Source of the DNA: Escherichia coli
GTDB taxonomy: Bacteria; Pseudomonadota; Gammaproteobacteria; Enterobacterales; Enterobacteriaceae
Assembly: GCF_003334405.1 (NCBI RefSeq)
Contig: NZ_QOWM01000001.1
Strand: one strand, 5' to 3'
DNA length: 64,000 bases
Shown: piece after piece, positions 6,300-7,774 of the stretch
Numbering within the stretch: the stretch's first letter is position 1
How the letters are laid out: each line of letters starts with the position of its first letter
Translations under genes and position numbers: made by a program
Notes under the pieces: model-generated
What the model was told of the DNA's origin: nothing
Seen by the model: only the letters and a program-made list of their open reading frames with translations
Databases searched by the model: none

Positions 6300-7546
6300 C
6301 AGGAGCGTGCTCCTTTTTTCGCGTATTCGCGGCTGGTGGCTTTCTCTTCCGGAGTGGTGGCGCTCTGGGCTTCCACCACTTCCACTTTCGCCCCTTCGGT
6401 CAGGCGATCAATGCCGTCTGTCACCACGCGATCGCCCGCAGAAATACCTGCACGGATCACCACTTTCTGACTGTCCTGAATGCCCGGCGTCACCAGATGT
6501 TTGCTGACCTTGTTTTCACTATTCAGCACCCAGACAAAATGGCCTTCATTGCCCATTTGCAGGGCGGCTGATGGGATCACTACGGCGTTTTGTTCGGTGT
6601 CGACTAACATGCGCGCGTTAACAAACTGATTGGGAAACAGCGCATCATCCTGATTATTAAAGCGTGCTTTCACTTTAATCGTACCGGTTGTGGCATCGAT
6701 TTGGTTATCGAGGCTTAACAGCGTGCCTTCACTTAATTTCTTCGAGTTGGTGCGATCCCAGGCTTCTACCACCAGCGGTTTTCCGGCTTTCTGCGCCTGC
6801 ACGACGGTAGCGATATCGCTTTCCGGCAGGGTAAAGAGCAAATCGATAGGATGCGTCTGGGTGATCACCACGATCCCGGTGGTATCACCACTGGAGATTT
6901 GGTTACCAACATCAACCTGCTTGAGACCAACGCGACCATCGACTGGTGCGGTGATGCGGCTCCAGTCGAGTTGCAACTGCGCGCTGGCGACGCTTGCTTC
7001 ATCAGCCTTAATGGTGCCTTCGGTTTCACTGACCAGCGCCTGTTGGGCATCCAGCTCCTGACGGGAGACGAGATTGGTTTTTGCCAGTTGCTGATAACGC
7101 GCCAGATCACGGCGGGCGTTAGCAAGCGTGGCTTTATCTTTTGCCAGTTGGCCCTGGGTTTGTGCTAATGCAACTTTGAACTGGCTGGGGTCAATTTCTG
7201 CCAGTAAATCGCCTGCTTTGACCTGCTGGCCTTCCTGGAAATGTAACGCCATCAGTTGACCGTCCACGCGGCTGCGCACCGTAACAGTATTAGCGGCGAT
7301 AATGGTGCCAAGCCCGGTGAGGTAACGCGGAACTGCCTGTTCTACGGCGGTCGCCGCCTGAACCGGGGCTAATGGGCCGGAACGCATACCACGGCGACCA
7401 CCCGCTGGCGATTGCTGCGCTTGTTTCGTCGCCCCTGGGGCTGCACTCTGGGAGTCATTGCGGCCTTGCCAGAACCAGAATGCGGCGATGGCGGCGATAA
7501 CCACCACGATTACGATTACCCAACGGGATTTATAACTGCCTTTCAT
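6299..7546 (-). CDS. mdtA: RND efflux membrane fusion protein (periplasmic adaptor) MdtA
   Basis: ORF track gives 464 aa from an upstream ATG; trimmed to the internal ATG (complement 7544-7546) giving [15 protein letters not shown]..., 415 aa, matching recalled MdtA; signal-anchor then coiled-coil/lipoyl-like adaptor sequence. Confidence 0.9.
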
Positions 7547-7599
7547 CGTTAAGAGTTTCTCTTCCTGAAACGTTTCGCGGAATGATACTAGTGTAGCCA

Positions 7600-7617
7600 G
7601 CCAATAAGGGAGAAAAA
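7600..7617 (-). promoter_or_regulatory. Candidate BaeR response-regulator box upstream of mdtA
   Basis: Forward GCCAATAAGGGAGAAAAA = reverse complement TTTTTCTCCCTTATTGGC, close to the BaeR box consensus as I recall it (TTTTTCTCCATDATTGGC); lies ~55-70 nt upstream of the mdtA start. Confidence 0.5.
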
Positions 7618-7774
7618 TGGAGGAATTATGAAACACTATCGGGAATCGTCTGAATGGCGGGCACATTTGCGAGCACGCATCCAGTAATAACACATGAAAC
7701 TATTTTATCTACGCGTTAGCGATAGACTGCTTGCATGGCGAAAGGAGGTAAGCCGACGATTTCAGCGGGACGCT

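Follow-up and report, generated by a model that had tools for sequence, protein, structure and literature searches.

The 18-mer TTTTTCTCCCTTATTGGC, found on the minus strand just upstream of mdtA in a stretch of 64,000 nucleotides of Escherichia coli DNA (contig NZ_QOWM01000001.1 of RefSeq assembly GCF_003334405.1; the whole stretch is called the window below), is, at the E. coli mdtABCD-baeSR promoter, the canonical operator through which BaeR, an envelope-stress regulator, turns on the MdtABC efflux operon. It is the same as in K-12 and is already known. The BaeR site, the Sib/Ibs repeats that lie upstream of it and the adjacency of the two in the yegL-mdtA spacer likewise belong to the annotated or published picture of K-12. 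Taken as a whole, the explanation that we retain, a known BaeR operator acting by a class II mechanism next to a Sib/Ibs array that is independent of the promoter, is very probably correct. Coordinates of the features discussed are collected in Table 1.

On the plus strand, positions 7600-7617 read GCCAATAAGGGAGAAAAA, the reverse complement of which is TTTTTCTCCCTTATTGGC; the initial annotation had given this sequence at these positions, and both coordinates and letters were exact. The coordinates of mdtA were taken from the list of open reading frames (ORFs) and from the RefSeq annotation of strain Res13-Lact-ER02-39, which is 100% identical to the window over 7400-8900. The box is in sense orientation, with 53 nt between it and the mdtA ATG (7546), and the minus strand upstream of this ATG reads ...GTGTTTCATAATTCCTCCATTTTTCTCCCTTATTGGCTGGCTACACTAGTATCATTCCGCGAAACGTTTCAGGAAGAGAAACTCTTAACGATG. 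As a reference we used the BaeR consensus TTTTTCTCCATDATTGGC (Nishino 2005, in the form quoted in PMC3799227 and PMC3915751). The mdtA box agrees with the quoted form at 17 of 18 positions, the sole mismatch being a C for an A at position 10. The chance level of such matches was estimated from expected counts and from 100 shuffles of the 64-kb window. The box is the only match with up to 3 mismatches in the window, where 0.28 are expected, and matches with at most one mismatch were never obtained in the 100 shuffles.

From the mdtA ATG to approximately 7960, the alignment of the window with K-12 is gap-free and shows 98% identity; over the box and its flanks, from the ATG to beyond 7636, the two are identical. 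K-12 has the same 18-mer at the same 53 nt from the mdtA ATG; the site itself shows no difference, and what distinguishes the two promoters lies upstream, with two Sib/Ibs units in K-12 and three in the present strain. Binding data, obtained by chromatin immunoprecipitation with exonuclease digestion (ChIP-exo), and expression data are those of MG1655 (PMC7657598), carried onto the window by identical sequence. Two BaeR ChIP-exo peaks are reported upstream of mdtA, at 2153931-2153967 (signal-to-noise ratio 11.0) and 2153972-2153998 (15.0). The box, at 2153945-2153962 in MG1655, is located within the first of them, which corresponds to 7595-7631 of the window (TCATAATTCCTCCATTTTTCTCCCTTATTGGCTGGCT) and covers the box together with the repeat upstream of it. 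The second peak corresponds to 7564-7590 (TAGTATCATTCCGCGAAACGTTTCAGG) and covers the putative -10 and start region. The BaeR peak of K-12 therefore does not map elsewhere, but over the box. No site coordinates were obtained from PMC4107485, PMC3160322, PMC4462101 or PMC9600279. Upon deletion of baeR, the log2 fold change of mdtA was -4.0 (16 fold down) under ethanol, and 0.07 without stimulation (PMC7657598). What had been described as a sequence resembling the BaeR consensus is thus supported beyond this likeness, by its identity in K-12, by an in vivo ChIP-exo peak and by the BaeR dependence of mdtA.

Conservation was examined both within E. coli and across the family. In a set of 5426 complete E. 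coli genomes, homologues of 7400-8900 were found in 5420, and the 50-nt promoter core (7582-7631) was present in 5417, being 100% identical in 5292 of 5418 records. For the cross-species set, one genome per species was scanned; 80 Enterobacteriaceae mdtA loci were obtained, 79 of which had enough upstream sequence, and these 79 unique promoters served as input of a conservation profile. Three blocks were strongly conserved: 7636-7612, 7598-7581 (the -10 region) and 7569-7556 (the ribosome-binding region). The sequences TTCCTCCATTTTT and CTAGTATCATT were each recovered with at most one mismatch, and at fixed positions, in 78 of the 79 loci. Judging from the profile, the functional region would extend to at least 7636, and perhaps to 7656, which is 9 bp from the boundary of the repeats.

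Table 1. Features of the mdtA-yegL region (positions in the window; a dot stands for no strand)
Feature	Position	Strand	Basis
mdtA coding sequence, first gene of mdtABCD-baeSR	6299..7546	-	RefSeq annotation of identical strain; ORF list
Putative -10 TAGTATCAT, BaeR-dependent promoter of mdtA	7582..7590	-	CTAGTATCATT conservation; within peak 7564-7590; promoter role proposed
Three 10-bp-phased half-site-like repeats, proposed tandem BaeR contacts	7597..7624	-	Read from sequence; within peak 7595-7631; binding mode proposed
Published-type BaeR box TTTTTCTCCCTTATTGGC	7600..7617	-	17/18 to consensus; same in K-12; within BaeR ChIP-exo peak
Block conserved across genera, GTGTTTCATAATTCCTCCATTTTTC; shares with the published box no more than its 5' third	7612..7636	-	Conservation profile, 79 promoters
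Second upstream block CATTCAGACGATTCC, moderately conserved	7641..7656	-	Conservation profile
Sib/Ibs unit 1, mdtA-proximal	7666..7993	.	Direct-repeat family, period 328; blastn of units
Unit-1 Sib antitoxin RNA, same strand as mdtA; 3' hairpin then UUUCCCGUUU	7781..7916	-	K-12 sibB transfer; Rfam; fold
Unit-1 ibs toxin ORF (MMKWIIIVVLLVISFPAY, WP_012767741.1)	7825..7881	+	Sequence; RefSeq annotation of identical strain
Sib/Ibs unit 2, ibs 8153-8209 (+), product identical to K-12 IbsB	7994..8321	.	Rfam; direct repeats; RefSeq annotation
Sib/Ibs unit 3, SibA/IbsA type, ibsA 8482-8541 (+)	8322..8660	.	Rfam; repeats; RefSeq annotation; blastn of units
yegL, beyond the array	8762..9421	+	ORF list; RefSeq annotation of identical strain

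BaeR is a response regulator of the OmpR/PhoB family, the members of which bind tandem direct repeats. Tandem half-site-like repeats with a 10-11 bp period are present at mdtA: TCCTCCAT at 7624-7617, TTCTCCCT at 7614-7607 and TTGGCTGG at 7604-7597, with starts at 7624, 7614 and 7604. They are short and degenerate, hence the support that they bring is modest. In the first lies the CTNCA core that the BaeR sites aligned in PMC3799227 have in common, and the second has CTCCC. No acceptable -35 hexamer was found 16-18 bp upstream of TAGTATCAT (7590-7582), a position that is filled by the repeats. From the lack of a -35 at the expected spacing and the presence of repeats in its place, we infer a pho-box-like class II arrangement, with a putative transcription start near 7575 that is placed from the conserved -10 and the second ChIP-exo peak; the half-site assignment and the position of the -10 are likewise proposed. 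In such an arrangement, phosphorylated BaeR would bind head-to-tail to the three 10-bp-phased repeats, over 7624-7597, and cover the place of the -35; it would then recruit RNA polymerase to the conserved -10, for a transcript beginning near 7575 and extending through mdtA. This class II arrangement agrees with the second ChIP-exo peak, which covers the putative -10 and start region.

The mdtA promoter can be compared with those of spy and acrD, the three of them being reportedly the promoters behind the derivation of the BaeR consensus. In MG1655, the spy (TTTTTCTCCATAATTGGC) and acrD (TTTTTCTCCACGATTGGC) boxes share with mdtA the same TTTTTCTCC...ATTGGC frame, a TTCTCCA-N3-TTGGC layout, and T/C-rich repeats of the CTCC type 10-22 bp upstream of the box. 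Two differences were seen. The mdtA box has CTCCC in place of CTCCA, with a CTCCA copy 10 bp upstream, and it abuts the -10 region, whereas the spy box is placed ~100 bp upstream of the core promoter. With the pho box of PhoB, and OmpR-family class II promoters, mdtA has in common tandem direct repeats of ~10-11 bp instead of a -35, upstream of a good -10, and an expression that needs the phosphorylated regulator. Unlike in the pho box, the half-site sequence is different, and the geometry at mdtA depends on a start site deduced from the sequence.

Beyond the promoter lies the Sib/Ibs array. The minus strand has three matches to the Rfam family SIB_RNA (RF00113), at 7810-7952, 8138-8280 and 8467-8615, with scores of 137.6, 142 and 149.9 bits compared to a gathering score of 56. 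They belong to direct repeats with a period of 328 bp, the first unit of which begins at 7666. On the plus strand, ibs ORFs at 7825-7881, 8153-8209 and 8482-8541 encode hydrophobic peptides of 18-19 amino acids and are fully antisense to each Sib; in the annotation of the identical strain, three plus-strand ibs toxin genes are followed by yegL. The distal edge of the BaeR box is separated from the start of unit 1 by 48 bp, which bears out the statement of the initial annotation that the first repeat unit starts within ~80 bp of the box. The functional parts of this unit are farther off: its Sib RNA has its 3' end at 7781, and ibs starts with the ATG at 7825; these limits were carried over from the K-12 annotation (sibB 2153646-2153781) through the gap-free alignment.

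The K-12 array of the yegL-mdtA spacer (SibA/SibB-IbsA/IbsB, or QUAD1a/1b) has the same locus, orientation and distance from mdtA. Its distal unit encodes IbsA, like that of the window, and the peptide of K-12 IbsB is encoded by unit 2 of the window. K-12 differs in having two units, sibB/ibsB proximal and sibA/ibsA distal, the window having one more unit of the B type, whose Ibs peptide MMKWIIIVVLLVISFPAY (WP_012767741.1) is a variant of K-12 IbsB. The allele of the proximal unit varied among the five E. coli strains inspected, while the non-coding junction was constant. Arrays of four units, or interrupted by IS4, were found in other E. coli strains. A sample of 30 evenly spaced records gave, as a rough estimate, three units in ~40%, two in 40% and four in 13%. 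In strain EC200461 (L005, 2244-3590), an IS4 insertion separates the proximal unit of the array from the ibsA unit, and the mdtA-proximal junction is intact.

The distance from the mdtA ATG to the first ibs ATG was 279 nt in K-12 (2 units), in the present strain (3 units), in EC200461, where IS4 splits the 2 units, and in strains 5270 and RM9467-C1, which have 4 units each. Among the compared strains with two, three and four units, the 287 bp from 7544 to 7830 were colinear, with no insertion or deletion and with 0-11 substitutions, none of which fell in 7582-7637. To follow how unit number changes, the region of units 1 and 2 of the window (7674-7966) was compared with K-12 (L001, 1767-2094). 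Units 1 and 2 are distinguished by 29 sites; the B-type unit of K-12 agrees with unit 1 at 18 of 19 of them (7674-7807), and with unit 2 at 10 of 10 (7834-7966). By this pattern the proximal unit of K-12 is a chimera, of the kind left by an unequal crossover that took place between 7807 and 7834. Arrays of two and of three units thus arise by unequal crossover inside the units, a new but minor point, and in this way copy number can change while the mdtA-proximal junction and the promoter stay intact.

Across the 79 species, a Sib unit adjoins mdtA in 32 (Escherichia, Citrobacter, Pseudocitrobacter, Kluyvera and a few others), and its 3' end is 233-239 nt from the mdtA ATG in most of them (235 in the window). 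No Sib unit was found next to mdtA in the 47 others, as confirmed by Rfam for 20 of the 47. The promoter core was conserved equally with and without a Sib unit upstream, and with 0 to 4 units. Citrobacter, Pseudocitrobacter and Kluyvera have one Sib/Ibs unit next to mdtA (L012-L026, L042, L046, L052, L071, L076, L079), except for one Pseudocitrobacter with two; the distance to mdtA is 233-239 nt in Citrobacter and Pseudocitrobacter, near the E. coli value, and 210-337 nt in Kluyvera. Since Sib is also next to mdtA in these three genera, the synteny predates the genus Escherichia, and arrays of several units occur mainly in E. coli. The Sib/Ibs type I toxin-antitoxin array would thus be an independent module, and its distance from mdtA would have stayed fixed from a time preceding the split of Escherichia, Citrobacter, Kluyvera and Pseudocitrobacter. 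It would gain and lose 328-bp units by unequal crossover within units, sparing the mdtA-proximal junction and the promoter. The adjacency is, by this comparison, old and real, and the promoter seems to behave as a self-contained module.

These observations bear on a proposal of the initial annotation, that a longer or shorter array could change the distal context of the mdtA promoter. Taken broadly, the number of Sib/Ibs units would tune the promoter, either through the distal DNA context or through Sib read-through toward mdtA. The array is indeed close, with 48 bp to the box and 9 bp to the last of the conserved blocks of the promoter, the Sib genes are on the mdtA strand, with a unit-1 terminator made of a strong hairpin and an interrupted U tract (UUUCCCGUUU), and natural copy number in E. 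coli goes from 2 to 4. Nevertheless, the comparative data gave the proposal no support: the gain or loss of a unit changes nothing within ~260 bp upstream of the mdtA ATG, as the junction is colinear in the strains examined and the crossover falls at 7807-7834, inside the units, and the core is equally conserved whatever the number of units. Moreover, the proximal unit is always present, so that any read-through from the nearest Sib promoter would be constant, and extra units stand behind further terminators, which makes a dependence of read-through on copy number unlikely. In K-12, deletion of baeR had no effect on unstimulated mdtA, which was BaeR dependent when induced; there is no sign of a large Sib-driven part, absolute basal levels aside. 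We consider tuning by unit number very unlikely. A related possibility is that basal mdtABCD-baeSR expression shifts measurably with copy number, or with the proximal-unit allele, by read-through of U-poor Sib terminators on the mdtA strand into the promoter region. Folding of the 3' end of the unit-1 Sib gave a strong hairpin, then UUUCCCGUUU, then a second hairpin without U tract, and a simple terminator scan of 7450-8000 called none, though folding shows Sib hairpins with interrupted U tracts. We hold this effect on basal expression to be very unlikely; if true, the shift would move the set-point of the BaeSR stress response, because baeSR lies in the mdtABCD-baeSR operon.

The conserved region itself could be read in other ways. 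A divergent plus-strand ORF of 19 amino acids (GGAGG 7620-7624, ATG 7629, stop 7688) might account for the conserved bases, through its ribosome-binding site and its start, in place of BaeR binding. The plus strand reads AAAAATGGAGGAATT-ATG-AAA, and this GGAGG-N4-ATG arrangement, strong as a signal for ribosome binding and initiation, falls on the block with the highest conservation; the peptide motif ESSEW also recurs in several genera. However, the length of the ORF ranges from 6 to 106 amino acids across the 79 species, its start is GTG in some of them and is lost (AAG) in three genera (L027, L059, L080), and Klebsiella and Raoultella use another frame (MKRLLRYVW...). This variability in length, frame and start codon, together with a stop placed directly after the conserved DNA motif, indicates that conservation is at the DNA level, and MG1655 has no gene annotated at this position. 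The candidate was therefore rejected: the 7629-7688 ORF is probably not a gene, and that it accounts for the conservation is extremely unlikely. Of another kind is the suggestion that the blocks at 7625-7656 belong to a larger regulatory region, as a second, upstream sigma-70 promoter of mdtA (TTCAGA-18-CATAAT) or as the site of a second regulator, which would be compatible with the BaeR operator and extend it. A promoter scan did match TTCAGA-18-CATAAT on the minus strand at 7654-7625 (9/12), a match that joins the CATTCAGACGATTCC block to CATAAT (7630-7625) and overlaps the BaeR repeats. This sequence, or TTCAGA-18-CATATT, occurs in 33 of the 79 loci and similar variants in many others; conservation across genera extends to both hexamer regions, and TTC trinucleotides are found at 7654, 7645, 7633, 7625 and 7614, with a mean spacing of 10 bp. 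On the other hand, only 25 of the 79 loci reach 9/12 for the sigma-70-like match, and a constitutive promoter fits poorly with a strict BaeR dependence on induction. As for a second regulator, Hirakawa is said to have described in 2005 a direct binding of CpxR upstream of the BaeR site at mdtA. A scan for CpxR boxes (GTAAA-N5-GTAAA, up to 2 mismatches) from the mdtA ATG (7546) to 7993 found none, the nearest being at 7994 and 8322, at chance level, and the ChIP-exo peaks listed in PMC7657598 name mdtA only in two BaeR rows, with no CpxR peak recorded. We regard a larger regulatory region as a possible, though tentative, addition. Over the whole window, the same CpxR motif was found 87 times, for 62 +/- 8 expected, a number that none of the 100 shuffles reached; this excess probably reflects a composition or codon effect rather than CpxR sites.

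Several points weigh against the explanation by a BaeR operator of class II geometry with an independent array. The overlap with the -35 and the class II geometry rest on a deduced rather than a mapped transcription start, and the half-site repeats, being short and T/C-rich, could be partly fortuitous. The ChIP-exo data come from K-12 rather than from this strain, though the sequence is identical. Besides, at spy in MG1655, an exact-consensus BaeR box (L087, 266-283) falls between two ChIP-exo peaks (178-212 and 324-344) and in neither of them, the distal peak covering a TCTGCAAAA element instead of the box; peak intervals are therefore not exact footprints. The independence of the array would follow from comparative evidence. 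Finally, the published box is poorly conserved outside Escherichia and Citrobacter over its 3' two-thirds (7611-7599), and the corresponding sequence TTCTCCCTTATTGGC was found with up to 3 mismatches only in these two genera, in 19 of the 79 loci, whereas the 5' third of the box and the repeat next to it upstream are kept in 78 of the 79. Because of this poor conservation, the published box may not delimit the real BaeR contacts. In other genera, the best match to the consensus is shifted 10 bp upstream, onto ATTTCCTCCATTTTTCCG. This shift and the conservation profile suggest that the evolutionarily constrained BaeR element is the CTCCA repeat that precedes the published box by ~10 bp, a point which is new but minor.

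Concerning the BaeR regulon, its prediction by motif beyond Escherichia and Citrobacter should allow for the fact that the part conserved across genera is the upstream CTCCA repeat and not the 3' half of the box. Concerning the array, two, three or four units leave the promoter and ~260 bp upstream unchanged, so copy-number variation is unlikely to be the cause of differences between strains in MdtABC or BaeSR expression.

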